Shown: positions 1-37,546 of the stretch, in pieces
How positions within the stretch are numbered: the stretch's first letter is position 1
How the letters are laid out: each line of letters opens with the position of its first letter
Source of the DNA: a virus
Lineage: Duplodnaviria; Heunggongvirae; Uroviricota; Caudoviricetes
Length of the DNA: 37,546 nt
Reading direction: 5' to 3' (one strand)
IMG/VR virus record: IMGVR_UViG_2713896773_000006
Location: 1-37,546 of that record
Translations under genes and position numbers: made by a program
Notes under the pieces: model-generated
Told to the model about the DNA's origin: nothing
What the model saw: only the letters and a program-made list of their open reading frames with translations
Database searches by the model: none

Positions 1-474
1 ACATCCGCTGTGCACGTGGTCTTTCATAGCAGAACCACACATGCAGTAGTCATTGTCAGTATTACTAATGATGTCGATAAGTTGCTGTGTCCGTTGCTTC
101 AACATCGCATTCTCCGCCGCCAGCGCAGAAAACTTCTCGTGCGCCAACTTAACGGCTGCATCTGCCTGCCTCATTGCCTCCATTGCTTTCTCGTTATCAG
201 TTGCTAGCGCCGCGCACTTGGCTTCAAGTTCGGCAAACTTATCAGCCACTGATTTCGGCCCGTCTTCGCCGCAAGCCTGCATCATTGATGACTCCCATGC
301 TCTTTCTGCTGCTTCCGATAGCTTTAATTGCACTTCAAGTAATGCAATCTTTGATTCAAGCTCACCAAATTTACGCACCAGATATTCAGCGTTTGTTTCG
401 TTAACCTTTAAATCACATGGGATGCATTTACCTTTCAGAAAACCATCCATCTCAATTAGTGACATTTGTTTCAT
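1..474 (-). CDS. Ea22-like protein, partial (C-terminus runs off window start)
   Basis: Minus-strand translation from ATG at 474: [42 protein letters not shown]... open to position 1. N-terminus is paralogous to the ORF at 36224..36586. GGGAAG RBS-like upstream. Not in the ORF track because it is open at the edge. Confidence 0.5.
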
Positions 475-635: not shown

Positions 636-913
636 GATTTACTCTCCACGAACTGGTCAACAGCCATGCTAAGTGACACACCTAAAGTCTCGATATGTTG
701 CTGAATATCCTGTAGCGTCTGCGCCTGAGATAACAGGATTTCACGGTTGCATAACTCTTTAACCAGATGCTCAAACTTGCTGTAATAACCGATACGACTT
801 AGTGTTTCTTTGCCTGCATTCTCGCATTCTTTGATAATTCCTCTTTCGCTAAGAATCAGATCGTGTTTTGTTCCGGTAATAACGTATTTGCCGAGGTCGA
901 TGTTTAGCTTCAT
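632..913 (-). CDS. hypothetical phage protein
   Basis: 93-aa ORF with ATG start and GGAG RBS 8 nt upstream; sits in the leftward early operon. No family recognised. Confidence 0.5.
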
Positions 914-929
914 TGTTAATTACTCCATG

Positions 930-1244
930 TTAATTTATTCGTATGCCTGCTCTTTCTTCATCGAGTTTTTTTAGCTTGTATCGCATAGCTCTCACTGAAT
1001 AAATTGAGCGGCAGGTTGCAATTGCTATTTCTTCTGCGGAGAACTTACCGAAAAGTGATACTTCGGCTCTTGTCCAGCGTCTTCCACGAAGTCGGCTAAC
1101 AATGTCAGCGCCAATCCTTGTTGCTTTCGCCATTACTGCTTTTTCAGTCCTTTCCAGTTTTTCTGCGATAACTTCAACTGGCATTGTCGCCGCTACCTCG
1201 CGCAAGAAATCGACTTCCCATTTCTCCCATGGAGTCTTTTTCAT
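930..1244 (-). CDS. hypothetical phage protein
   Basis: 104-aa ORF with ATG start in the leftward early operon; basic C-terminus. No family recognised. Confidence 0.45.
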   Translation of the reverse strand: MKKTPWEKWEVDFLREVAATMPVEVIAEKLERTEKAVMAKATRIGADIVSRLRGRRWTRAEVSLFGKFSAEEIAIATCRSIYSVRAMRYKLKKLDEERAGIRIN

Positions 1245-1255
1245 AGGCGATACCG

Positions 1256-1738
1256 TTATTTGATAAGAAGTGAAGGTTTCCCAACTTTGAGTTGAGCGCC
1301 GGGGATATTTATTCCTGCTTTTAGTTGGTGTTTGATTGCCAGTTTGTCGGCTTTAATTGTCGTTTCAAACTCAACGTATTCATGAGGAAGGGCGCTTGAG
1401 TCGATGATTTCTACAGTTTCTGACGGTTTGCGGATTGTTACCTGGTGAATACCTGCTCGAATCTTTTTCTTGCCAACCATTTCAAGCGATGACGCTATAT
1501 ACGCCATAATGCTGTCAATCTTATTTTGAATTACTACGGCTCGCTCATTTAGTGACTTTGCCTCTTCCTTGAGGCGTTCAGCATAACCAGATTCATTTTT
1601 AATAATGGCGAGAAGTTGCTCTATTTTATCGGTAAATTCTCCTTCCATGCCTTCTATTGTGTCAGCAATCATCTCTGGCTCTAAATCTGAATCCATCAAT
1701 TTTGCGTATTCATTGGCAATTTCATATAGTTTGCTCAC
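1256..1738 (-). CDS. Gp157-family protein (siphovirus Gp157-like), recombination-module associated
   Basis: About 160 aa, acidic/helical, immediately downstream of recT; family assignment is from memory. Track start at 1744 is TTG; GTG at 1738 has a GGAGG RBS 6 nt upstream and is preferred. Confidence 0.5.
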   Translation of the reverse strand: MSKLYEIANEYAKLMDSDLEPEMIADTIEGMEGEFTDKIEQLLAIIKNESGYAERLKEEAKSLNERAVVIQNKIDSIMAYIASSLEMVGKKKIRAGIHQVTIRKPSETVEIIDSSALPHEYVEFETTIKADKLAIKHQLKAGINIPGAQLKVGKPSLLIK

Positions 1739-2636
1739 TGGCAACCTCCAGTTTCGCTTTGCATTCTATGTAAATGGCTTGTACGTTCTGCTGCAATTTC
1801 ATTCCAGATGTCAGGCGATATGCTTCTGCAAAATATCGCTTCAAATCATCCATGTTTTCTGCCTGAGCCATTTCATCACAAAGAAGTTGTGCTTTTTCCA
1901 TTATTTCCTGCTGGCGTTTCCGTTCATCTTCGCGGATATCTTCCTCTGATTTGTGCGGCATAACTGGTTCAGTCCACACACCTTCTTCTTCGTTTAGTAC
2001 GTGAATAGCACTATCAAGACGTGATGCCTTAGGCCAATACTTGCTTGCACGCTTTACGACCGTCTTTCGCGCCATCTCATTCCAGTGATTTACCCATGGT
2101 CCTTTATCGCTGAATGCTGCCTTGCTTGTTTTCCTTACAGCCTCAATTTCAGCCAGACTCATCTCTTCCGTTAGATAATCACCTGCTGGCGTCTTAACTG
2201 TGCAGTAAACGCCAACGATATCACCACGATCACCGAAGGCGTTGTATTTATGGGTTGGTGCTTTATCAAGCCCGTTTGACTCATAGGTATCGTTAGCATG
2301 AACAAGTTTTGCCTGACCCCATGAGATAACACCAGACTCCATTGCAATATGGAGCAATCCCATATAGCTGATATCAAGGCAAACCATGCCGTCGCGCGGA
2401 ACCAGATAAGCCAGTTTGCTGGCCGGGTTTAAGGTGATGCCGATCGCCGCAACGTTGATGATAGCGTTCTGTGCGCTGGTCGGATTTGCCAGTGCTGTTT
2501 TAGCCAGGTAATCATTTTTCTGGAAATACTGAATTGCAAATTGGCTTTCCTTAGCCCATGTGACTGATTGGTCTGTAACCGCCCCAACAAAGAGCGGCTC
2601 TTGCTGTTTAACGAACTCAACAATGCTCATGCTCAT
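1722..2636 (-). CDS. recT: RecT-family single-strand annealing recombinase
   Basis: 304 aa; segment GPWVNHWNEMARKTVVKRASKYWP matches the conserved RecT block (E. coli RecT GPWVTHWEEMAKKTAIRRLFKYLP, recalled). GAGGGA RBS. Confidence 0.85.
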   Translation of the reverse strand: MSMSIVEFVKQQEPLFVGAVTDQSVTWAKESQFAIQYFQKNDYLAKTALANPTSAQNAIINVAAIGITLNPASKLAYLVPRDGMVCLDISYMGLLHIAMESGVISWGQAKLVHANDTYESNGLDKAPTHKYNAFGDRGDIVGVYCTVKTPAGDYLTEEMSLAEIEAVRKTSKAAFSDKGPWVNHWNEMARKTVVKRASKYWPKASRLDSAIHVLNEEEGVWTEPVMPHKSEEDIREDERKRQQEIMEKAQLLCDEMAQAENMDDLKRYFAEAYRLTSGMKLQQNVQAIYIECKAKLEVASEQTI

Positions 2637-2638
2637 CG

Positions 2639-2935
2639 TTACTGTCCCTCATCAATATCTGTTTGGTGGCGAGCAATTGTCTCTGCCATGTAGCGAATAA
2701 ATTCAGCGGCCCTTTCCTGAAACTCGACGTCATCATCGAATGCTTTGGAAATGGCATTCTTGCTGGCCCCGCGACGTTGCAACTCGTCAACGCACAACGA
2801 TTCCAGTTTGCTCTGTGGCAATCCTTTTTCGAGGTCATCAGCCAGTTCAGATTCACGCTCTTCTCTGGCTATTTGCTGATAATGGCGCGTCCAGTTCTGC
2901 GCCTCGATACGGTCTTGAACGAGATATGCAGCCAT
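2639..2935 (-). CDS. gam: Gam-like host nuclease (RecBCD) inhibitor
   Basis: From internal ATG at 2935 (AGGAG RBS): [98 protein letters not shown] (98 aa), close to the recalled lambda Gam short form. The upstream 43 codons of the track ORF are probably not translated. Confidence 0.8.
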
Positions 2936-3014
2936 AATAGGCTCCTGAAATTTGGTTGTGCGCTGCCCGTCTGCGATAGCCGGACGAGTAGGGGTAATGG
3001 GTGTTTGGTGTGGT

Positions 3015-3257
3015 TTACTTGCCGAGTGCCTTGTCGATGGCGGAACGAGCCATATCAAACTCATCTGTTTGACGGTCTGCTACTCTAACTACAGCCTGCA
3101 GAGCTTCCAGTAATTCAGGCGCTGCAGTAATGAGAGTCTTGTTTTCCTTTCTCGTCATTTCAAGTGGATATCCCTTTCCAAAGACTATGTGATGCTTGTT
3201 TCCCAAGCCCTCTTCATCCCAAAACCACGGACCGGGAGTTCCTTTAAATTCGCTCAT
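3015..3257 (-). CDS. hypothetical protein, [16 protein letters not shown] family (paralog A)
   Basis: 80 aa, [11 protein letters not shown]...[10 protein letters not shown]...KALGK; paralogous to the ORF at 3903..4190. Lies between kil-like and gam. Confidence 0.55.
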
Positions 3258-3260
3258 AAC

Positions 3261-3410
3261 TCACTTCCTGTGCCACGGAAAACCAATTGCCGCCTTCATA
3301 TCGTTGTAGGCTGACATCCACATTTCACTATCACCAATAAATCGGGCTATTACTGCTTTGTTCTGTGCAGCACGAAGCATCTGGTGATTAATGGCTATTT
3401 CATTGTGCAT
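3261..3410 (-). CDS. kil: Kil-like small protein (putative host cell-division inhibitor)
   Basis: 49-aa ORF below the track cutoff: MHNEIAINHQMLRAAQNKAVIARFIGDSEMWMSAYNDMKAAIGFPWHRK. GGAGG RBS. Resembles lambda Kil (FIGD... core, recalled) and sits where kil sits between cIII and gam. Confidence 0.4.
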   Translation of the reverse strand: MHNEIAINHQMLRAAQNKAVIARFIGDSEMWMSAYNDMKAAIGFPWHRK

Positions 3411-3529
3411 AACGCCTCCAGTTGTTTCTTTGCTGCTCTGATTAATTGTTTAACTCGGCGTGATAATTCAGATTCGTGCGGGTAGAAAGCGGACATGACG
3501 CCGCTACCCGCGAGCTGAAAGTGCATCAT
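3395..3529 (-). CDS. cIII: CIII-like protein (putative FtsH inhibitor stabilising CII)
   Basis: 44-aa ORF from ATG at 3529 with AAGGAG RBS: MMHFQLAGSGVMSAFYPHESELSRRVKQLIRAAKKQLEALCTMK. Same pattern as lambda CIII (AG...PSESLLERI.RKL, recalled). The 79-aa track ORF has no RBS for its longer start. Confidence 0.5.
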   Translation of the reverse strand: MMHFQLAGSGVMSAFYPHESELSRRVKQLIRAAKKQLEALCTMK

Positions 3530-3592
3530 GGGTAACTCCTTATATTTGATTGCATAACGAAAACGCCTCAAGTGAAGCGTTATTGGTATGCA

Positions 3593-3619
3593 TATAAAAA
3601 AGCCCTCACACTGGAGGGC
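3593..3619 (-). terminator. putative intrinsic terminator inside the leftward early operon
   Basis: Minus strand: GCCCTC-cagtgt-GAGGGC hairpin followed by TTTTTTAT. Confidence 0.4.
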
Positions 3620-3714
3620 AAAGAAGATTTCCAATAATCAGAACAAGTCGGCTACTGTTTAGTTACGAGCGACATTGCTCCGTGTATTCACTCGTTGGAA
3701 TGAATACACAGTGC

Positions 3715-3903
3715 TTATTCGTCATGCATTTCAGGTAATTCTTCGTATTCGACTCCCCATACGAGTTTACACCAAGTGACTCGCTCATATCTTTTACAAA
3801 AATCAGACCACATAACTTGTGTTCCATCATGGTTTGTTATTACTTCTGTAATATCACCAACACTAACAAAACTGGTATTAGAAGCAGTTATTTTTACTTT
3901 CAT
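3715..3903 (-). CDS. hypothetical small protein
   Basis: 62-aa ORF with ATG start, TAATG-coupled to the upstream gene. Confidence 0.4.
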   Translation of the reverse strand: MKVKITASNTSFVSVGDITEVITNHDGTQVMWSDFCKRYERVTWCKLVWGVEYEELPEMHDE

Positions 3904-4190
3904 TACTTATCCCCAAGAGCTTTTCTGATTGCTGCAAGACCTTTATTAACAGCTTCATACCATTCTGGATATGTTGTCGTTGTTCTATTTTTGGATTGCT
4001 TAAGTAATAACTGAAGTGCTTCGAGAAGGTCAGGTGCTGCCGCTATCAGTAGCGCATCCTCCCTTTCATTTCTTGTTGCTGCTTCAATGTATGTGTCACC
4101 AATCGTCACACCATGGAACGTAGTCATCATCTCGTTGACGTTTCTAACCGTGTACTTCCATTTACCAGGCGTACCCTTAAACTCTTTCAT
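3903..4190 (-). CDS. hypothetical protein, [16 protein letters not shown] family (paralog B)
   Basis: MKEFKGTPGKW...AAPDLLEALQ...KALGDK. ATG at 4190 with GAGGTG RBS preferred over the GTG track start at 4196. Confidence 0.55.
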   Translation of the reverse strand: MKEFKGTPGKWKYTVRNVNEMMTTFHGVTIGDTYIEAATRNEREDALLIAAAPDLLEALQLLLKQSKNRTTTTYPEWYEAVNKGLAAIRKALGDK

Positions 4191-4221
4191 ATCCACCTCT
4201 GTTGTTTATGCCAAAATAATT

Positions 4222-5164: not shown

Positions 5165-5896
5165 TTAGTAATCAACTACAGACCACCAGAAAATTCTTCC
5201 GATGATCTCAATGTCACTTAGATTCTTTTCTTCTTGTGGGTATTCCAGTGAGTTAAAGCTTCTAATGCTTACCTTGTCAGGCCCTGTTCGAAAGAGAATC
5301 TTAATGCGTTTCCAACCGTTCTCGTTAATGGCGTAAATCTTTCCGTCAACTATTTTCTTATCGTTGGTGTTAACAGCAACTGTTGTTCCATCAGGAATGT
5401 TTGGCTCCATGCTGTTGCCACGAGCCGGAAAACAAACAACCCCGCTTCCATCACTGTTCGCGCCAACTCTGCGAAGGGTTGATTTGGAAAAGCGCAACAT
5501 AAAGCCGTTGTGATCTTCATCAATCACCCGACCATCCCCGCATGCAAACTCAATATCTTTAAGGTAAGGAATTTCAACTTCATCACCTCTTAAAGGCGTT
5601 TCTCCATCCCATGGGTCCAAACATCCCCACGTGCTTTCATGAGGAATAGAAGATTTTGGATCATAAGGTTCAACTCCCTCATCACGCATTGGCCCAGTTC
5701 CATCGGAAAGCCATTCCGTACGAACTCCAAGCACTTTTGATATTTCAAAAAGTTTGCGCGTATTGCGTGTTTTTCCAGACGTAAGTTTCCAGACGCTTGG
5801 CTGAGACATGCCAACAGCATTGCCAAGAGAAGCCTGAGTAAACCCAGCCTGATCCATCGCGTATGTAAGCCTTTGAGAAAAAGTATCTAGTTTCAT
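5165..5896 (-). CDS. cI: CI-type prophage repressor (HTH N-terminus, S24 LexA-like autocleavage domain)
   Basis: 243 aa. N-terminal HTH (QASLGNAVGMSQPSVWKL), C-terminal Ser/Lys dyad context (GNSMEPNIPDG ... NGWKRIKIL). Divergent from cro, as in lambdoid immunity regions. Confidence 0.9.
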   Translation of the reverse strand: MKLDTFSQRLTYAMDQAGFTQASLGNAVGMSQPSVWKLTSGKTRNTRKLFEISKVLGVRTEWLSDGTGPMRDEGVEPYDPKSSIPHESTWGCLDPWDGETPLRGDEVEIPYLKDIEFACGDGRVIDEDHNGFMLRFSKSTLRRVGANSDGSGVVCFPARGNSMEPNIPDGTTVAVNTNDKKIVDGKIYAINENGWKRIKILFRTGPDKVSIRSFNSLEYPQEEKNLSDIEIIGRIFWWSVVDY

Positions 5897-6845: not shown

Positions 6846-7722
6846 GTTAGCTGATTACAGGCATAACCCTGTACAACATCAGGAGGCATCCAGTATGGGG
6901 TATGTCTCTATACACCGCCAGTTTATGGACAGCAGGCTCTATAAGGACTCTCAGGCAGTACATCTTTGGCTTCACTTAATCCTCAAGGCTAATCACGAAT
7001 CTACTGTCGTCAATACGGATATCGGTCCGATAACTGTTGATCGCGGTCAGATGATAACTGGACGCCCGTCGCTGGTCAGAGAAACATTCATCCCCGACAA
7101 CAAAGTTAGGAGCTTATTACGGACTTTTGAGTCGAAAGGGATGCTTAATATTTGCTCGATGGGGAAGAAATTTAGCCTGTTTACAATCGTTAAATATGAC
7201 GATTTTCAGGCAAAAAATTGTCCAACGGTTGTCCAACGGTTGTCCAACGCAAACACCAGTAATGGCGCGGCTCTCAGCGGAGATTGTCCAACGGTTGTCC
7301 AACGGTTGTCCATAAACAATAATATAAATAATATCTCTAATACTGACGTATTAGAGAGTGCCACAGCAGACAAAAAGTCTGACAAGAAAAAACCTTCCGT
7401 CAGCTGTCAGGATGTTGTCGATGCTTACCACGAAATCCTTCCTGAAGCGCCAAGAATCCGCGCACTGAATGACAAGCGTAAAAACCAGATCCGAACGTTC
7501 TGGCGCAAAGCCGGAGTGATAACCCGCCAGCTTGACGGGCATGGGTTCACGATGCAGGACTGGAGAAATTATTTGAGCTACGTAGGCGAAAATTGCCGAT
7601 GGATGTTCGAAGAGCGCCCAAACCATCAACGCGGAACCGTCTGGCACAAAAAGGGATTTGATTTCCTGCTTAACGACAATACCTACCTGAAAGTTCGTGA
7701 GGGTGAACACGATGACCGATAA
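6832..7722 (+). CDS. replication initiator (lambda O-like / P22 gp18-like), iterons embedded
   Basis: 296 aa directly upstream of, and overlapping, the DnaB-type helicase gene. The central coding region carries direct repeats, as ori does inside lambda O. Alternative start ATG 6895 has a GGAGG RBS. Confidence 0.7.
   Translation: MGVVKLADYRHNPVQHQEASSMGYVSIHRQFMDSRLYKDSQAVHLWLHLILKANHESTVVNTDIGPITVDRGQMITGRPSLVRETFIPDNKVRSLLRTFESKGMLNICSMGKKFSLFTIVKYDDFQAKNCPTVVQRLSNANTSNGAALSGDCPTVVQRLSINNNINNISNTDVLESATADKKSDKKKPSVSCQDVVDAYHEILPEAPRIRALNDKRKNQIRTFWRKAGVITRQLDGHGFTMQDWRNYLSYVGENCRWMFEERPNHQRGTVWHKKGFDFLLNDNTYLKVREGEHDDR
7218..7345. repeat. candidate replication origin: about six TTGTCCAACGG iterons in two clusters plus an AT-rich tract
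   Basis: Directly visible: TTGTCCAACGG at 7218, 7229, 7240 (variant), 7284, 7295, 7306 (partial), then ATAAACAATAATATAAATAATATCTCTAATA. Confidence 0.6.
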
Positions 7723-10177
7723 TTTTTATGCGCCGCCCCATAGCATCGAGGCAGAGCAGGCGGTGATTGGTGGATTGCTTCTGGATGATGACAGCAGTGA
7801 GCGCGTCCAGAAAGTTCTAGCGATGCTGAAGCCCGATTCATTTTACAGCAGATCACACAAAATCCTTTTCGAAGAAATAACCAGAATGCACCGGGAGCAA
7901 AAGCCAGTAGATGGCCTGACGCTTTTCGATGAACTGGAGCGTAAATCGTTAACGGCGTCTGTTGGCGGTTTTGCTTATATCGCTGAGATCGCAAAGAACA
8001 CGCCAAGCGCCGCAAACATCGTTGCCTATGCAATGCAGGTTCGTGAAACCGCAATGGAACGCTACGCCATCAACCGCATGACTGAAGCGACGGAATTGCT
8101 CTATTCCCGCAACGGAATGACTGCAACGCAGAAGTACGAAGCTATTCAGGCGATTTTCACGCAACTGACAGACCATGCAAAAACCGGATCGCGTCGCGGC
8201 CTTCGCTCATTTGGTGAGGTCATGGAAGACTGGGTTAGCGACCTTGATAAGCGATTTGACCCGTCAGGCGAACAACGAGGAATGAGCACAGGAATACCAT
8301 CGCTGGACAGGATGCTGTCACCGAAAGGTCTGGTGAAAGGCTCTCTGTTTGTCATTGGCGCTCGCCCTAAGATGGGGAAAGCGCAACCGCTTAATTCACG
8401 CATTTTGCTTGCTGATGGTTCATGGACAACATTTCGTGACGTATGTGTTGGAGATTCCCTAGCATCAGTGGATGGACAACCATCATTCGTGTCTGGAGTT
8501 TTTCCTCAAGGGGAGCGAGATATTTACCGAGTTACGTTCTCTGACGGAAGAACCGTTGATTGCGCGGATGATCATTTGTGGGAAATTCATAGTAACCGTA
8601 TTACCGGTGGCGTTGATGTTGTAGACACCTGCCGCCTACGGGACATGATGGAATGCGTTCGCTATCAAAGCCGCATTCATGTTCCTGGTATTAGCGGTGA
8701 CTTCGGATTGCCTGTTGATTTAGGGATTAGCCCATGGCTGTTAGGTGCGTTACTTGGCGATGGAAATCTTGCAGGTACGCCACGAATCAGCATGACGGAA
8801 CCATACATCATTGAGCGAGTAAGATCTGAAGTGGGTGACGATATTGAAGTCAGACATGTTTCTGGCTGCGATTACTCCCTACCTCACAAGTTTAGCCGCA
8901 AATTATCTCTTACGCGGGTTATGCAACGGCTTGGTATCTACGGCCGGATGTCAGAGATTAAAATTATCCCGGATATTATTTTTTCTGCTGATAAGCAAAC
9001 TCGTATTGATGTTCTATGCGGATTACTTGAAACCGATGGTTGGGTTGAAGGAAATAATGCCCTGCGCTTTAGCTCGGCAAGCAAGTTCCTGTCAGATGGT
9101 GTAAAGCGGCTGGTGCATTCTCTTGGTGGCGTGTGTCGTATGACAACCAAACAGGAGCCGAAATTCAGTTATAAGGGAGAAATGCGCAAAGGTATGGATG
9201 CCCATATTTGCGCAATCAGGTTGCCTGATGAGGTTCTATCACACATAAAATCTCCACGCCTGAAGCAAAAATTCACTGCAAAACGCATCAAAACAAGTGA
9301 GCCTGTTATCACGTCGGTTGAGTATATTGGACGTGAAGAGTGCATTTGCATCATGGTATCCCACGAGAGACATTTGTATGCAACTGACGGATACATTCTA
9401 ACCCACAACACCACGCTATACAGCCAGATGGCAATCAATTGCGCAGTGCATGAGAAAAAGCCCGCTCTGATGTTCAGCCTTGAAATGCCAGGTGATCAGA
9501 TACTGGAAAAACTGGTAGGGCAGAAGTCTGGTGTTAACCCGAATATTTTTTACCTTCCGGCGACAAATGACGCCGATGACGGCTATCAGGGTGATTACGA
9601 TGGTGACTTCAACAGGGCGATCGAAACAGCCAATCGCTTGAGTGAAATCGACATGCTTTACATCGACGACACGCCGGGATTATCTCTGGCTCAAATCGTC
9701 AGCGAAAGCCGTCGAATCAAGCGAGAAAAAGGATGTGTTGGCATGATTCTGGTCGATTACCTGACACTAATGACCGCTGAGAAGGCCGATCGCAACGACC
9801 TTGCTTACGGCATGATCACCAAAGGACTGAAGAACCTTGCCAAAGAGCTTGATTGCGTTGTTGTGCTTCTGACACAGCTTAACCGCGCACTGGAAAGCCG
9901 AACCAATAAACGCCCATTACCAAGTGACTCACGAGATACAGGGCAGATTGAACAGGATTGCGATTATTGGGTCGGGATCCATCGTGAAGGCGCTTTTGAT
10001 GACAGTGTTCCACCTGGGGAAACCGAACTAATCCTTCGTCTCAATCGTCATGGCTATACCGGCACGGTGTATTGCATTCAGGCAAATGGCGCTATTTATG
10101 ACACAGACCAACAGTCTGCTGAAATGCGCCGCCGTGAACGTGAGGAACCGCAGTCCAAGAAGAAAGGAGGATTCTGA
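7712..10177 (+). CDS. dnaB: DnaB-family replicative helicase with an intein in the P-loop
   Basis: N-terminus MTDNFYAPPHSIEAEQAVIGGLL is DnaB-like. The Walker A is split: ...GARPKMGK | 343 inserted aa | TTLYSQMAINCAVHEKKPALMFSLEMP... (E. coli DnaB ARPSMGKTTFAMNL...LIFSLEMP, recalled). ATG at 7712 preferred over the GTG track start 7697. Confidence 0.9.
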   Translation: MTDNFYAPPHSIEAEQAVIGGLLLDDDSSERVQKVLAMLKPDSFYSRSHKILFEEITRMHREQKPVDGLTLFDELERKSLTASVGGFAYIAEIAKNTPSAANIVAYAMQVRETAMERYAINRMTEATELLYSRNGMTATQKYEAIQAIFTQLTDHAKTGSRRGLRSFGEVMEDWVSDLDKRFDPSGEQRGMSTGIPSLDRMLSPKGLVKGSLFVIGARPKMGKAQPLNSRILLADGSWTTFRDVCVGDSLASVDGQPSFVSGVFPQGERDIYRVTFSDGRTVDCADDHLWEIHSNRITGGVDVVDTCRLRDMMECVRYQSRIHVPGISGDFGLPVDLGISPWLLGALLGDGNLAGTPRISMTEPYIIERVRSEVGDDIEVRHVSGCDYSLPHKFSRKLSLTRVMQRLGIYGRMSEIKIIPDIIFSADKQTRIDVLCGLLETDGWVEGNNALRFSSASKFLSDGVKRLVHSLGGVCRMTTKQEPKFSYKGEMRKGMDAHICAIRLPDEVLSHIKSPRLKQKFTAKRIKTSEPVITSVEYIGREECICIMVSHERHLYATDGYILTHNTTLYSQMAINCAVHEKKPALMFSLEMPGDQILEKLVGQKSGVNPNIFYLPATNDADDGYQGDYDGDFNRAIETANRLSEIDMLYIDDTPGLSLAQIVSESRRIKREKGCVGMILVDYLTLMTAEKADRNDLAYGMITKGLKNLAKELDCVVVLLTQLNRALESRTNKRPLPSDSRDTGQIEQDCDYWVGIHREGAFDDSVPPGETELILRLNRHGYTGTVYCIQANGAIYDTDQQSAEMRRREREEPQSKKKGGF
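8381..9409 (+). mobile_element. intein (343 aa) with LAGLIDADG homing-endonuclease domain, probably class 3
   Basis: Insert begins with Ala and ends ...ILTHN, with +1 Thr. Two LAGLIDADG-like motifs (LLGALLGDGNL, LCGLLETDGWV). Block-B-like DDHLW, block-F-like Cys (EECICIM) and Thr before the terminal His-Asn give the WCT pattern. Boundaries inferred from the extein alignment. Confidence 0.8.
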
Positions 10178-10484: not shown

Positions 10485-10931
10485 ATGAAGCAAATATACA
10501 TGCTTCGCAACGAAGCAATCAGAAACAACGCCATAGACGCAATACTCTCACTTCCGATCGACGACAAGTCACCTCACGAAGTCCACGTTAGAGAACCCAA
10601 ACGCAGCAAAGCGCAGAATGACCGTATGTGGCCGATGCTGAACGATGTTTCGCGTCAGGTGCTATGGCATGGTCAACGGCTGGCGCCGGAAGACTGGAAA
10701 GACCTGTTCACTGCCCTGTGGCTTAAGACCAAAAAACTGGAGCAACGAAGTGTGCCTGGTATCGACGGTGGCGTTGTCATGCTTGGCGTGCGTACCAGCA
10801 AAATGCGAAAGGCCAGCATGACTGAGCTTATCGAAATCATGTTCTGGTTCGGCTCAGAGCGCAACGTGCGGTGGAGTGATGACTCCCGGCGAGAGTATGA
10901 ATGGTCACAACGAAAAGGGAAGGCTGCATGA
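10485..10931 (+). CDS. ninB: NinB (Orf-family recombination mediator)
   Basis: 148 aa; QNDRMWPMLNDVSRQVLWHGQRL...WSD matches the lambda NinB pattern (QNRKLWACLGDVSRQVEWHGRWL, recalled). Confidence 0.85.
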   Translation: MKQIYMLRNEAIRNNAIDAILSLPIDDKSPHEVHVREPKRSKAQNDRMWPMLNDVSRQVLWHGQRLAPEDWKDLFTALWLKTKKLEQRSVPGIDGGVVMLGVRTSKMRKASMTELIEIMFWFGSERNVRWSDDSRREYEWSQRKGKAA

Positions 10932-11455
10932 CTATCAAATCAAATACGCCGGCGTCAGATAGGTATCGGCTTATTGAGGATTATCTGTATTTAGACGGAG
11001 ATACAGTCAGATACAAAAAGGACTCGCTAAAACACCCCAACCACAGCCACCGGGCCGGAGATGAAATTAAAACATCGATAAATGGATCTGGGTATAGACA
11101 GGTGTGTTTTGCAGGCATTCAGATGTTTGTTCACGTAGTTGTTTTTGCGCTGCACAACAAAAGAATGCCATTGAAAAATATTGACCATATTAACGGAAAC
11201 AGGCTGGACAATTCCCCAAAAAATCTTAGGGAGGCAAGCCGGATAGCAAACAGCCGAAATCAGAAAACTAAGTGCAATAGCCGTTCTGGAATAAAAAATG
11301 TTTTATGGAACAAGCAAAAAAATAAATGGGCCGTTCAAGTGCGCACAGATTTTGGCCGGTTGCATTTTGGGTTCTATGAAGATCTTGAGCTTGCTGGTTT
11401 GGTTGCCAGTGAGTCTATCAACAAATATCACGGACAATATGCGAGGGTTGAATGA
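10928..11455 (+). CDS. HNH endonuclease with AP2-like DNA-binding domain (free-standing homing-endonuclease type)
   Basis: ATG at 10928 overlaps the ninB stop. HNH motif context (IDHINGNRLDNSPKNL) followed by an AP2-like segment (GIKNVLWNKQKNKWAVQV...FGFYEDLELA). Locally AT-rich relative to neighbours. Confidence 0.75.
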   Translation: MTIKSNTPASDRYRLIEDYLYLDGDTVRYKKDSLKHPNHSHRAGDEIKTSINGSGYRQVCFAGIQMFVHVVVFALHNKRMPLKNIDHINGNRLDNSPKNLREASRIANSRNQKTKCNSRSGIKNVLWNKQKNKWAVQVRTDFGRLHFGFYEDLELAGLVASESINKYHGQYARVE

Positions 11456-12161: not shown

Positions 12162-12328
12162 TTGACCCAAATCGAAGTTACGAACAAGGAAGTGTCGAGC
12201 GGGCTTTAACGTGCGCTAACTGCGGTCAGAAGCTGCATGTGCTGGAAGTTCACGTGTGCTCCGATTGCTGCGCAGAACTGATGAGCGATCCGAATAGCTC
12301 AATGTACGAGGAAGAAGACGATGGCTAA
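12158..12328 (+). CDS. ninF: NinF
   Basis: 56 aa, GTG start overlapping the ninE stop: [56 protein letters not shown], close to recalled lambda NinF. Below the track cutoff. Confidence 0.65.
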
Positions 12329-12926
12329 ACCAGCGCGAAGGAAATGCAAAATATGCAAGGAATGGTTTCACCCGGCATTCTCAAATCAGTGGTGGTGCTG
12401 CCCGGAACACGGAACTCAGTTAGCACTCAAACTACAAAGTAAACAGCGAAAAAAAGCGGAAAAAGCAGCAGAGAAGAAACGACGACGAGAGGAGCAGAAA
12501 CAGAAAGATAAACTGAAGATTCGAAAACTCGCCTTAAAGCCCCGCAGTTACTGGATTAAACAAGCCCAACAAGCCGTAAACGCCTTCATCAGAGAAAGAG
12601 ACCGCGACTTACCATGTATCTCGTGCGGAACGCTCACGTCTGCTCAGTGGGATGCCGGACATTACCGGACAACTGCTTCGGCACCTCAACTCCGATTTGA
12701 TGAACGCAATATTCACAAGCAATGCGTGGTGTGCAACCAGCACAAAAGTGGAAATCTCGTTCCGTATCGCGTCGAGCTGATTATCCGCATCGGGCAGGAA
12801 GCAGTAGACGAAATCGAATCAAACCATAACCGCCATCGCTGGACTATCGAAGAGTGCAAGGCGATCAAGGCAGAGTATCAGCAGAAACTCAAAGACCTGC
12901 GAAACAGTAGAAGTGAGGCCGCATGA
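12321..12926 (+). CDS. ninG: NinG (Rap-like recombination endonuclease)
   Basis: 201 aa; Cys-rich N-terminus and lysine-rich linker typical of lambda NinG; position between ninF and Q. Confidence 0.8.
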
Positions 12927-23204: not shown

Positions 23205-23393
23205 ATGGCACGAACAATGCTCTATAAGCCGGGCAACATGATCACCTGTGGTCAGTTTGCTGTCGATTACATCATTGTTGATGACGAAGAAGTTAAATCT
23301 CACCTGAAAAAAGGCTGGGTAAAAACTCCTGAAGAAACCGCAACGAAGCATAAAGTGGCTAAGGCGGAAGAAGATGGCGAAAACGAAGGGTGA
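23205..23393 (+). CDS. hypothetical small protein
   Basis: 62 aa from ATG at 23205 (GGAGAAG RBS), between coat and gp4-like gene. Confidence 0.4.
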   Translation: MARTMLYKPGNMITCGQFAVDYIIVDDEEVKSHLKKGWVKTPEETATKHKVAKAEEDGENEG

Positions 23394-23835
23394 TCTCGTT
23401 CTAAAGGCTTTACGAAAAGCCGGGCTGTATTCCAATGCCACGTTGACAGATGCTGACCCTCAGGCAATTGAAGATGCCATTAATGACCTCGAAGACATGA
23501 TGGCAGCATGGCAGGCTAAAGGTATCGAGCTTGGGTATCAGTTTGCTGATACAGAAAACGGCATCATGCCGTTACCGGACGATGATTCAGGTATCCCTGC
23601 ATGGGCAAATGATGGCGTCGCTTTGAAACTCGCGGTGCAAGTGTGCATGGATAACGTCATTCAGCCGTCAGACGCTCTCCTTACCGCTGCTGACAGTGCA
23701 TATCAGACAATCTGTATCGCTTTAACCAAAATACCACCACTTGAGCGGAGAAATGACATGCCTCGCGGTAGTGGTAACAAAAGCGCGTTTACGTGGAATC
23801 GGTTTTACATCGAGAAAGATGATCCGAGTACGTGA
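23374..23835 (+). CDS. tail adaptor / head-completion protein (P22 gp4-like)
   Basis: 153 aa; KTKGDLVLKALRKAGL...ATLTDADPQAIEDAINDLEDMMAAW parallels recalled P22 gp4. Confidence 0.8.
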   Translation: MAKTKGDLVLKALRKAGLYSNATLTDADPQAIEDAINDLEDMMAAWQAKGIELGYQFADTENGIMPLPDDDSGIPAWANDGVALKLAVQVCMDNVIQPSDALLTAADSAYQTICIALTKIPPLERRNDMPRGSGNKSAFTWNRFYIEKDDPST

Positions 23836-25263: not shown

Positions 25264-25964
25264 TGGTTGATTCATCACTGAATAATCCTGTCGCGGTTCA
25301 GGCTACGCGCCTTGATGCTTCAATTTTGCCACGCAATATATTCAGCCAGTCTTACCTGCTGTATGTCATAAATCAGGGTGCTGATGTTGGCGCAATTGCC
25401 GGGAAGGCAAATCAGGCTGGTCAGGGCGCTTACGATGCTCAGGTGAAAAACGATGAACAGGATGTCGAACTGGCTGACCACGATGCAAGAATTTCCGCAA
25501 ACACAAAAGCGATAAATCTCCTTGAGGTCAGGTTAACAACTGCCGAAGGGAAGATAGTCGTACTGCGTAGCGATGTTGATTACTTGCTGGATGAGGTTAT
25601 CGATATTCAGGCGCATCTGGTCACTGTTGACCAAAGACTGGATGACGTAGAAAACGATGTCTCTGGCATTAAGAGTGATTACGTATCGAAAACCGTAACC
25701 GAATCGCAGTCTCTTGCGTCACCGCTGGATGTAAAAACATCATATTCAGTTGATGGAATTCAGGTTATTGGAGCAAGAAATACCGGATGGACTGCAGCCA
25801 CAGGTACACCTCTTCTTGGCTCATTCAACGCTAACCAGTCATACACGGTCGGCACTACGTACACACAATCCGAAGTCGCAGCTCTCGCTACAGGTTTGCA
25901 GCAGTCGCGGCAGCGTATTCTGGCGCTTGAAACGGCACTTAGATTACATGGGCTGATTGACTGA
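25263..25964 (+). CDS. tail needle protein (P22 gp26-like)
   Basis: 233 aa; conserved N-terminus ([18 protein letters not shown]) and C-terminus ([20 protein letters not shown]) with a divergent coiled-coil middle. Confidence 0.85.
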
Positions 25965-26419
25965 TGATTACATTCAAACCAACGCGAAACATCGACCTGA
26001 TAGAAGCAGTCGGAAATCACCCTGACATTATTGCCGGAAGCAACAACGGTGATGGATACGACTACAAGCCTGAATGCCGTTACTTCGAGGTGAACGTGCA
26101 CGGGCAGTTTGGCGGCATTGTTTACTATCAGGAGATTCAGCCGCTGACATTCGATTGCCACGCCATGTACCTGCCAGAGATTCGCGGCTTCAGCAAGGAA
26201 ATCGGGCTGGCGTTCTGGCGATACATTCTGACTAACACCACCGTTCAGTGCGTCACATCGTTCGCTGCACGCAAATTCCGCCACGGTCAGATGTACTGCG
26301 CAATGATTGGCCTTAAGCGTGTAGGAACCATCAAGAAATACTTCAAAGGCGTGGATGACGTGACTTTTTACAGCGCCACACGCGAAGAACTAATCGACTT
26401 CCTGAATAACGGGAGATAG
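25964..26419 (+). CDS. P22 gp14-like protein
   Basis: 151 aa in the position of P22 gene 14, between needle and ejection proteins. Confidence 0.6.
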   Translation: MITFKPTRNIDLIEAVGNHPDIIAGSNNGDGYDYKPECRYFEVNVHGQFGGIVYYQEIQPLTFDCHAMYLPEIRGFSKEIGLAFWRYILTNTTVQCVTSFAARKFRHGQMYCAMIGLKRVGTIKKYFKGVDDVTFYSATREELIDFLNNGR

Positions 26420-37240: not shown

Positions 37241-37546
37241 TCAGGCGGTGAAAGTACCAATAAAGGTTTCTACTTTGCTGTCCTTGAATTTCTCAACAAG
37301 CAGATCACGAAATTCGTTAGCCATTTCTTCCTGCACTGCTTCCAGCTGAATAATGCGCAGAACCAGTACAGGACGATCGCCAGTGATAATGCTGAGGCGT
37401 AATTTAAATGGACGTTCTTTCAGGCCTTCAAACGGAACGCATTTAAATTCAAATGCCACTGGCATAATGTCTTTGGTCTTCGCTTCGACAGACTCCATCA
37501 GGGAGCGTTTGCCGCTGAAGTCATTATCTTCAAAATCAGCGGTCTG
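37241..37546 (-). CDS. hypothetical protein, partial (N-terminus beyond window end)
   Basis: Frame stays open from 37498 to the window end (...[32 protein letters not shown]...). Confidence 0.4.

Follow-up and report, generated by a model that had tools for sequence, protein, structure and literature searches.

A nuclease-free Gam–RecT–Gp157 recombination module in a P22-like Escherichia coli phage and the possible docking of Gp157 by the RecT tail

Gam, RecT and Gp157 genes at the locus

The DNA analysed here, called the window below, comprises all 37,546 nucleotides of the IMG/VR virus record IMGVR_UViG_2713896773_000006 and belongs to a P22-like phage of Escherichia coli. At its left end, a minus-strand early-left operon contains a recombination (Rec) module of three consecutive genes, which encode a λ-type Gam, a RecT-family annealase and a protein of the Sipho_Gp157, or MuGam, type (Gp157). 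No exonuclease accompanies them, and a comparison of related phages suggests that the C-terminal tail of RecT docks onto Gp157, which is itself probably a binder of DNA ends. The three gene assignments and their coordinates had been proposed in a first-pass annotation made from the sequence alone, and profile searches (PF06064, PF03837 with TIGR00616, and PF05565) proved them correct.

The Gam open reading frame (ORF; 2639–3064, minus strand) matched PF06064 with E 1.5e-50 and 169.9 bits against a cutoff of 25, residues 44–138 aligning to positions 1–95 of the 98 in the profile, and it also matched phrog_259 (E 1.2e-50). The protein is 63% identical to λ Gam over 117 amino acid residues (aa), with E 1e-56. 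The PF06064 domain begins at the ATG at 2935, 7 nt downstream of an AGGAG motif (2946–2942), and the predicted RecBCD inhibitor corresponds to the 98-aa GamS-like form (2639–2935, minus strand), which is kept in Citrobacter and Yokenella loci. The open frame runs upstream to 3064, like the long form represented by the 138-aa λ Gam ORF, and differs from the φ80 "GamL" of Zheng, Casjens, Davidson, Amundsen and Smith (2025; PMC12315714). Homology marks the product as a blocker of the host RecBCD.

A gap of 2 nt separates the Gam stop codon from the ATG of recT at 2636. The RecT protein (1722–2636, minus strand) matched PF03837 (E 3.9e-32, 111.9 bits against 24), phrog_148 (E 5.2e-90) and TIGR00616 (82.5 bits against a cutoff of 52.65), and stayed below the cutoff of NF007351, the equivalog model of the Rac prophage RecT (100 bits against 296). 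By these scores, it is a member of the RecT family and no orthologue of the Rac RecT, and homology identifies it as a protein annealing complementary single strands. Its core, residues 1–224, is encoded at 1965–2636; residues 225–304, together with the stop codon (1722–1964), form a C-terminal domain delimited by comparison, the proposed Gp157-docking tail.

The Gp157 ORF (1256–1744, minus strand) matched PF05565 along the entire profile, positions 1–162 of 162 (E 1.7e-36, 126.1 bits against 28.6), and phrog_253, "Mu Gam-like end protection", with E 1.5e-52. A GGAGG motif within the 3′ end of recT (1749–1745, minus strand), read as the ribosome-binding site of the gene, is followed after 6 bases by a GTG at 1738. 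This GTG is most likely the real start codon, and the resulting length of 160 aa is that of nearly all homologues. The gene (1256–1738, minus strand) thus begins inside recT and overlaps its 3′ end by 17 nt.

When the early, nin, lysis, terminase and virion genes were all scanned with Pfam, no YqaJ/Exo, RecE or PD-(D/E)XK nuclease and no single-stranded DNA-binding protein (SSB) appeared; RecE was looked for through Pfam alone, and some small virion ORFs, for example 23374–23835 and 25964–26419, lay outside the scan. A six-frame phmmer search of the window with three λ-Exo-type nucleases and one PDDEXK_5-annotated protein as queries gave no match at E ≤ 2. The only other recombination-related genes in the window are those of NinB (10485–10931) and NinG (12321–12926); an HNH_3 endonuclease is encoded at 10901–11455. 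The idea of a nuclease hidden among the neighbouring genes of related loci was rejected as well, since no λ Exo match was found in 22 such loci and no nuclease family in Pfam scans of 33 hand-picked unknown neighbours, a set chosen without the evident repressor, integrase, methyltransferase and host genes. The absence of an exonuclease, which the first-pass annotation had stated for the two sides of the module, thus extends to the whole window by Pfam and six-frame phmmer; the Gp157 call held in the profile searches, and no neighbouring ORF proved to be an exonuclease. Judged from its genes, the module does not have the two-component composition, exonuclease plus annealase, of λ Red or RecET.

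The C-terminal tail of RecT and the Gp157 family

The core of RecT is 67–79% identical to the RecT cores of other phages, whatever partner those phages encode. As was found by tblastn, more than 80% of the protein is covered in only 25 phage records, and in many close cores the alignment stops at about residue 220–234. The last 88 residues, searched alone, found matches in only 26 phage records, all of which fall within the 27 records possessing a Gp157 of at least 50% identity. In the seven loci inspected, those of HK639, KO-TP1, PA-1, Pseudomonas phage 15b, phiA005, Vibrio phage 1.247.A and PdC23, the downstream gene matches the Gp157 hidden Markov model with E values of 1e-52 to 1e-55, and Gp157 directly adjoins the annealase in all of them except PdC23, where an HNH gene lies in between.

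The cores also occur with other tails and the tail with another core. The RecT of Lys12581Vzw, 67% identical to that of the window in its core, has a different tail and is followed by a λ Exo homologue and an SSB; its C-terminal region is Bet-like, being 41.5% identical to residues 140–261 of Bet. The RecT of Vibrio phage 1.198.B (core 76% identical) likewise has a different tail, and its gene is followed by genes of a λ Exo homologue and an OB-fold, SSB-like protein. The annealase of Pantoea phage PdC23 joins an ERF-family core (PF04404, E 6e-44) to a tail of the window type (57% identity over 46 aa, E 6e-15), with a Gp157 62% identical to that of the window. It is established that Red-beta's C-terminal domain binds λ Exo (PMC11611040). 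The blocks of core, tail and partner described here parallel that pair, and this comparison suggests that the tail of RecT, about 80 residues long, docks onto Gp157.

The tail itself belongs to no Pfam family, its profile gave no significant match against PDB and Pfam, and no similarity to Bet was seen. The profile weakly matches residues 129–179 of the 227-aa "Gp77" (PDB 9y6u, chain IA; E 1.2), a protein present in 48 chains across two PDB entries, with a helix pattern similar to that of the RecT tail. Gene 54 of Pseudomonas phage PMG1 (L035, 1758–2504), labelled "exonuclease", lies directly upstream of a Gp157 gene and has no Pfam family; it probably encodes an unclassified, mis-annotated annealase. 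Its tail similarity is weak (E 0.0033, 9.8% probability), and this case is weakly suggestive of a RecT-type tail. Homing-type HNH endonuclease genes were observed between the annealase and Gp157 genes in PdC23 (L025, 3147–3611) and near the same site in phage Louie, and the junction may be an insertion hotspot.

The Gp157 family is large, with 12,223 representatives at E ≤ 1e-3, and its partners are annealases of at least four families: RecT, Erf, Sak and Sak4. An example with Sak is Vibrio phage 1.148.O (L034, 1849–3442), which encodes a Sak-family annealase, a Gp157 54% identical to that of the window and an OB-fold SSB. A survey of Firmicutes phages reported that Mu gam, sipho_gp157, DUF1351 and DUF2483 share one position beside erf and sak4, and analogous functions were inferred for these interchangeable genes (PMC8093625). 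In the related loci, Gp157 evolves under purifying selection, with nonsynonymous divergence (dN) of 0.13–0.31 and saturated synonymous sites. The near-invariant positions of the protein are L4, K38, Y80, K132, G142 and G147.

A relationship with the Gam protein of phage Mu (PF07352), a Ku-like protein binding double-stranded DNA ends, is suggested by several comparisons. The two proteins are alike in size, in combining a long N-terminal helix with a small C-terminal domain, in having a gp9-like neighbour and in their weak but co-linear profile matches. Residues 43–159 of Gp157 are co-linear with positions 33–147 of the PF07352 profile; the same profile is matched by 40 of 143 diverse Gp157 members, at best with E 6.1e-7, and an hhalign comparison of the diverse Gp157 profile with Mu Gam gave E 5e-4 with the C-terminal domains in register. 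A shallow profile of close Gp157 relatives, compared with the single Mu Gam sequence, reached a probability of 1.2% in hhalign. The AlphaFold2 model of Gp157, with a mean predicted local distance difference test (pLDDT) score of 82.6, shows a helix over residues 21–88 followed by a small beta-rich domain, and the layout of the Mu Gam model (pLDDT 75.5, with a weak beta domain) is similar. Fold searches with Gp157 did not confirm the relationship to Mu Gam; a search of viral structures with the Mu Gam model returned nothing significant, even from Mu Gam's own family. Mu Gam needs no annealase for its work; an annealase adjoins Gp157 in nearly all cases. On profile and model comparisons, Gp157 is probably a distant relative of Mu Gam and a helical, probably dimeric protein that would sit on double-stranded DNA ends, which is supported and not proven; that it is a DNA-end binder of the Mu Gam kind we regard as reasonably probable.

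The gene next to Gp157 encodes a 104-aa companion protein, p104 (930–1244, minus strand; phrog_11492, E 4.6e-23, and phrog_323, E 2.8e-20). As was found by BLASTP, p104 is similar to Mu gp9 (L003, 2483–2782), whose gene lies beside Mu gam (E 5e-5). Its gene constantly follows that of Gp157 in the E. coli lineage, and it is also found in several of the genome loci.

Mosaic origin, distribution and genome setting

According to a megablast search against phages, the RecT–Gp157 block occurs in HK140, mEpX1, Kapi1, Gally, Louie and others. Phage Dewey (PQ850600) carries the whole Gam–RecT–Gp157 block with 98.6% identity over window positions 910–3700. In E. coli, RecT–Gp157 is present in 264–301 of 5,426 complete genomes (about 5%), and none of these 5,426 genomes has the Gam–RecT junction of the window. 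A scan of IMG/VR with the tail found the RecT–Gp157–p104 trio in all of the best 80 loci, which are near-identical E. coli loci and serve for counting, not as a measure of diversity. Where the gene upstream of recT was readable in these 80 loci, it encodes a 103-aa acidic protein without a Pfam family, and not Gam. In 20 species-representative Enterobacterales genomes, virtually all loci open to evaluation have RecT immediately upstream of Gp157, and about seven of the loci have a Gam or Gam-like gene upstream.

The sequences of HK140 and the IMG/VR prophages are 97% identical to the window from about 900 to 2633–2636, beyond which they are unrelated to it as far as about 3258 or 3536 (blastn), so that the identity to the HK140 type breaks off precisely at the start codon of RecT. 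The Gam of the window (2639–3041 in this comparison) is near-identical to that of Citrobacter prophages (L005 and L012; dN 0.013–0.017). In the same prophages, RecT–Gp157 is only about 76–78% identical to the window at the DNA level; the Gp157 protein is only 81% identical to theirs, with synonymous sites saturated. These comparisons point to a recent cross-genus exchange at a gene boundary. The identity break at the recT start codon, taken with the Citrobacter-like Gam, marks the module as a genuine mosaic, in which an E. coli RecT–Gp157–p104 block is joined to a Citrobacter-type Gam segment (junction at 2633–2638). The module had been called a hybrid in the first-pass annotation, and the abrupt end of the HK140-type identity at the start of recT, next to a Citrobacter-like Gam, bears this out.

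Other loci have different genes in the slot upstream of recT. In E. coli prophages, it holds the gene of the 103-aa acidic protein (HK140 gp42, L002 7281–7589; approximately 1524–1844 in L036–L115), which may act against RecBCD too or mimic DNA. Other loci without Gam have different genes of about 100 aa and no family directly upstream of recT (L024, 4800–5084; L021, 4797–5111; L022, 904–1227). The small protein of L024 starts with MAAYRAYDHIEDRRW, which is reminiscent of the N-terminus of Gam.

The early-left operon of the window has the λ order and starts from a gene of a cI-like repressor (5165–5896). It includes cIII (within 3395–3634), kil (3261–3410) and, between kil and Gam, a phrog_1273 gene (3015–3257), all on the minus strand; after p104 come a DUF5405 gene (632–913) and a DUF2737 gene (471–635). 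The phrog_1273 gene, which overlaps the long Gam frame, has a paralogue at 3903–4196 (minus strand) in the same operon, and neither has an assigned function. The rest of the gene set comprises the portal, coat, stabilisation and ejection proteins, a tailspike head-binding domain and an integrase. The ends of the window (37241–37546 and 1–474, minus strand) fuse in frame to a 259-aa Ea22-like ORF with a DUF2303 C-terminal part. Therefore, the window most likely represents a whole P22-like genome in circularly permuted form, with nothing hidden past its ends.

A single Chi site (GCTGGTGG) is present in the 37.5 kb, at 36411–36418, which is not above chance. This agrees with a published rule, by which Chi is not enriched in phages that have a Rec module (PMC12315714). 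A DnaB-type replicative helicase of 826 aa (7697–10177, plus strand) contains an intein-like insert, with weak Hom_end_hint and LAGLIDADG_3 matches in Pfam between the two parts of DnaB_C. A weak YfbR-like HD-domain match (E 1.1e-4, under the cutoff) lies at 36577–37140 (minus strand), adjoining the DUF2303-type ORF, an arrangement reminiscent of yfdQ/yfdR in the E. coli prophage CPS-53. Between the tailspike and integrase genes, a membrane acyltransferase (Acyl_transf_3; 32987–34180, minus strand) is encoded, which is likely an O-antigen-modifying protein of lysogenic conversion.

Relation to known systems and proposed working of the module

Nuclease-free modules of this type have been described before. 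Zheng et al. catalogued 246 lambdoid Rec modules, 84 of which have no nuclease, and cited HK140 as a case of single-strand annealing protein (SAP) type 4 without SSB or nuclease and with an anti-RecBCD protein of the MuGam type; the partner-interaction domains were explicitly left unanalysed there (PMC12315714). The HK140-type module has RecT, Gp157 and the 104-aa gene with 97% DNA identity to the window and with the same order and overlaps. It is likewise free of nuclease and SSB, and a SAP-4 RecT gene is directly followed by a MuGam-type gene. It differs in having the 103-aa acidic gp42 upstream of recT where the window has a λ-type Gam. In the HK140 type, the MuGam-type protein is the only function for RecBCD blocking or end protection, which does not apply to the window, where a λ-type Gam is encoded too. 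Phage Dewey has the same Gam–RecT–Gp157–p104 block, annotated as a gam-like inhibitor, a RecT-like protein and a Mu Gam-like end protection protein. Within the module, there is essentially no difference between Dewey and the window; window positions 1–350 are unmatched and the replication genes differ. The arrangement is thus of the known, published HK140 kind with a λ Gam added, as in Dewey, and the first-pass implication of an unrecognised kind of module does not stand, since RecT with Gp157 and without nuclease or SSB had already been catalogued (PMC12315714). The gene arrangement itself is ordinary and already in GenBank; the linkage of the tail with Gp157 is the one new point here.

Within the published panel, two anti-RecBCD functions are combined only in HK639, which has GamL and MuGam (PMC12315714). 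HK639 and Klebsiella phage KO-TP1 have the same three-gene order as the window, and two proteins for RecBCD blocking or end protection flank a RecT with the same tail. They differ in possessing a φ80-type GamL, and their proteins are 75% (RecT core), 49% (tail) and 62% (Gp157) identical to those of the window. The λ Red module resembles that of the window by its operon position after cIII and kil, by a homologous Gam and by an annealase gene with an overlapping partner gene behind it. The λ annealase also has a separate C-terminal partner-binding domain, a role that in the window is only proposed, by analogy, for the tail. In λ, however, the annealase is Bet and not RecT, an exonuclease is present and the C-terminal domain of Bet is unrelated to the tail of the window.

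Phage λ Gam inhibits RecBCD, and P22 Abc2 redirects it. The Abc1/Abc2–Erf–Arf module of P22 is similar to that of the window in being nuclease-free, in belonging to a P22-like virus and in relying on host nucleases, as is presumed for the window, and it differs by its Abc2 and Erf, neither of which the window encodes. The P22 route, in which resection is carried out by modified RecBCD, is unlikely in the window phage because λ Gam inhibits rather than redirects RecBCD. The distinction that had been drawn at first pass from λ Gam–Bet–Exo and from P22 Abc/Erf is therefore well founded: the window has RecT in place of Bet, no Exo and no Abc2 or Erf.

The best explanation of these data, which we favour with some caution, is that the locus is the Rec module of the early-left operon, in which Gam and RecT work with an end-binding Gp157 docked by the RecT tail, and in which resection is left to the host. 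Gam would block RecBCD, as its homology indicates. Gp157 would bind, mark and protect the DNA end, taking the slot that λ Exo occupies in the Exo–Beta pair, and RecT would be brought to DNA ends by its portable tail, a step suggested by the comparative evidence. The single strands would be supplied by nucleases of the host, for example RecJ, or by replication forks, given the absence of a phage nuclease. In a broader form, which is plausible yet falls short of probable, proteins of the Gp157/MuGam type would be dedicated annealase partners that dock a portable tail on at least RecT and Erf cores, making up a nuclease-free recombinase parallel to Exo–Beta.

Several observations weigh against this explanation. 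The match of Gp157 to PF07352 reached only E 0.022 and 15.2 bits against a cutoff of 28.3, and the probability of the hhalign match of the family to Mu Gam was only 31%. The literature searched holds no binding, DNA-end or recombination assay for this Gp157 clade. With λ Gam present, a second RecBCD blocker seems redundant. The tail and Gp157 are adjacent, so that genetic linkage alone could yield their co-occurrence. Among the Enterobacterales loci, one (L013) has a transposase-like ORF at the recT position, as judged by sequence inspection only, and another (L018) matches RecT over the last 115 residues or so only. The Sak annealase of Vibrio phage 1.148.O shows no significant similarity to the tail (E 0.046, misaligned); since this test and that of PMG1 were non-significant or weak, the tail claim is confined to RecT and Erf cores.

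The most serious alternative is that Gp157 is an independent end protector and RecBCD blocker of the Mu Gam kind without a physical tie to RecT, the tail travelling with it by adjacency. Such a protein would be in keeping with the classification of the HK140 protein by Zheng et al. simply as MuGam-type anti-RecBCD (PMC12315714). In Mu and JBD30, Mu Gam works by itself, the pairing of Sak with Gp157 does without a recognisable tail, and adjacency by itself predicts that tail and Gp157 are inherited together. Against this, the breakpoints fall at the boundary of core and tail in three contexts, namely RecT core with tail and Gp157, RecT core with Bet-like tail and Exo, and Erf core with tail and Gp157. 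This pattern fits the pair formed by Exo and the Bet C-terminal domain, which is known from experiments. The overlap of the annealase and Gp157 genes is conserved, and beside λ Gam a purely anti-RecBCD role would be redundant. An independent protector is considered rather unlikely, though it deserves to be kept in view beside the docked partner.

The remaining alternatives are far less probable. A role of Gp157 outside recombination, as a protein associated with the replication origin or with phage resistance, is suggested by records that name it "resistance protein" or "Siphovirus Gp157". In the original work on Streptococcus thermophilus, the resistance phenotype reportedly arose from cloned origin DNA and not from the Gp157 protein. 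The consistent position of Gp157 beside annealases of four families also speaks against such a role, which is very unlikely. Slimmer still is the chance that Gp157 is an unrecognised nuclease standing in for Exo or RecE, as might be thought from its occupying the place of exo after the annealase gene and from the "exonuclease" label of the PMG1 gene upstream of a Gp157. Among the 143 diverse members of the family, not one acidic or histidine column is conserved, which argues against a nuclease, and no nuclease family was matched. The predicted fold, a long helix with a small beta domain, speaks against it too, and the PMG1 label, on a protein without a Pfam family, looks like a mis-annotation. 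Gp157 had been put forward at first pass as the possible functional partner of RecT; this is upheld for a DNA-end-binding partner, on the strength of the linkage of the tail with Gp157, and not for a replacement nuclease. Least probable of all is a decaying, non-working remnant left by the loss of a nuclease: Zheng et al. called one- and two-gene Rec modules "somewhat suspect", but the ORFs here are intact and overlap across many genera, dN is far under the saturated synonymous divergence, the module is carried by the isolated, viable phages Dewey, HK140, mEpX1 and Kapi1, and 84 of the 246 lambdoid Rec modules have no nuclease (PMC12315714).

A Gp157 docked by the RecT tail, if true, would tell how an annealase reaches DNA ends in nuclease-free modules, which make up about a third (84 of 246) of the lambdoid Rec modules catalogued (PMC12315714). 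It may also offer a new two-gene recombineering cassette. End binders of the Mu Gam type hold RecBCD off DNA and thereby license Gabija, to which the phage becomes sensitive (PMC12407980), and a phage possessing both λ Gam and a MuGam-type protein would be a useful test case for this.

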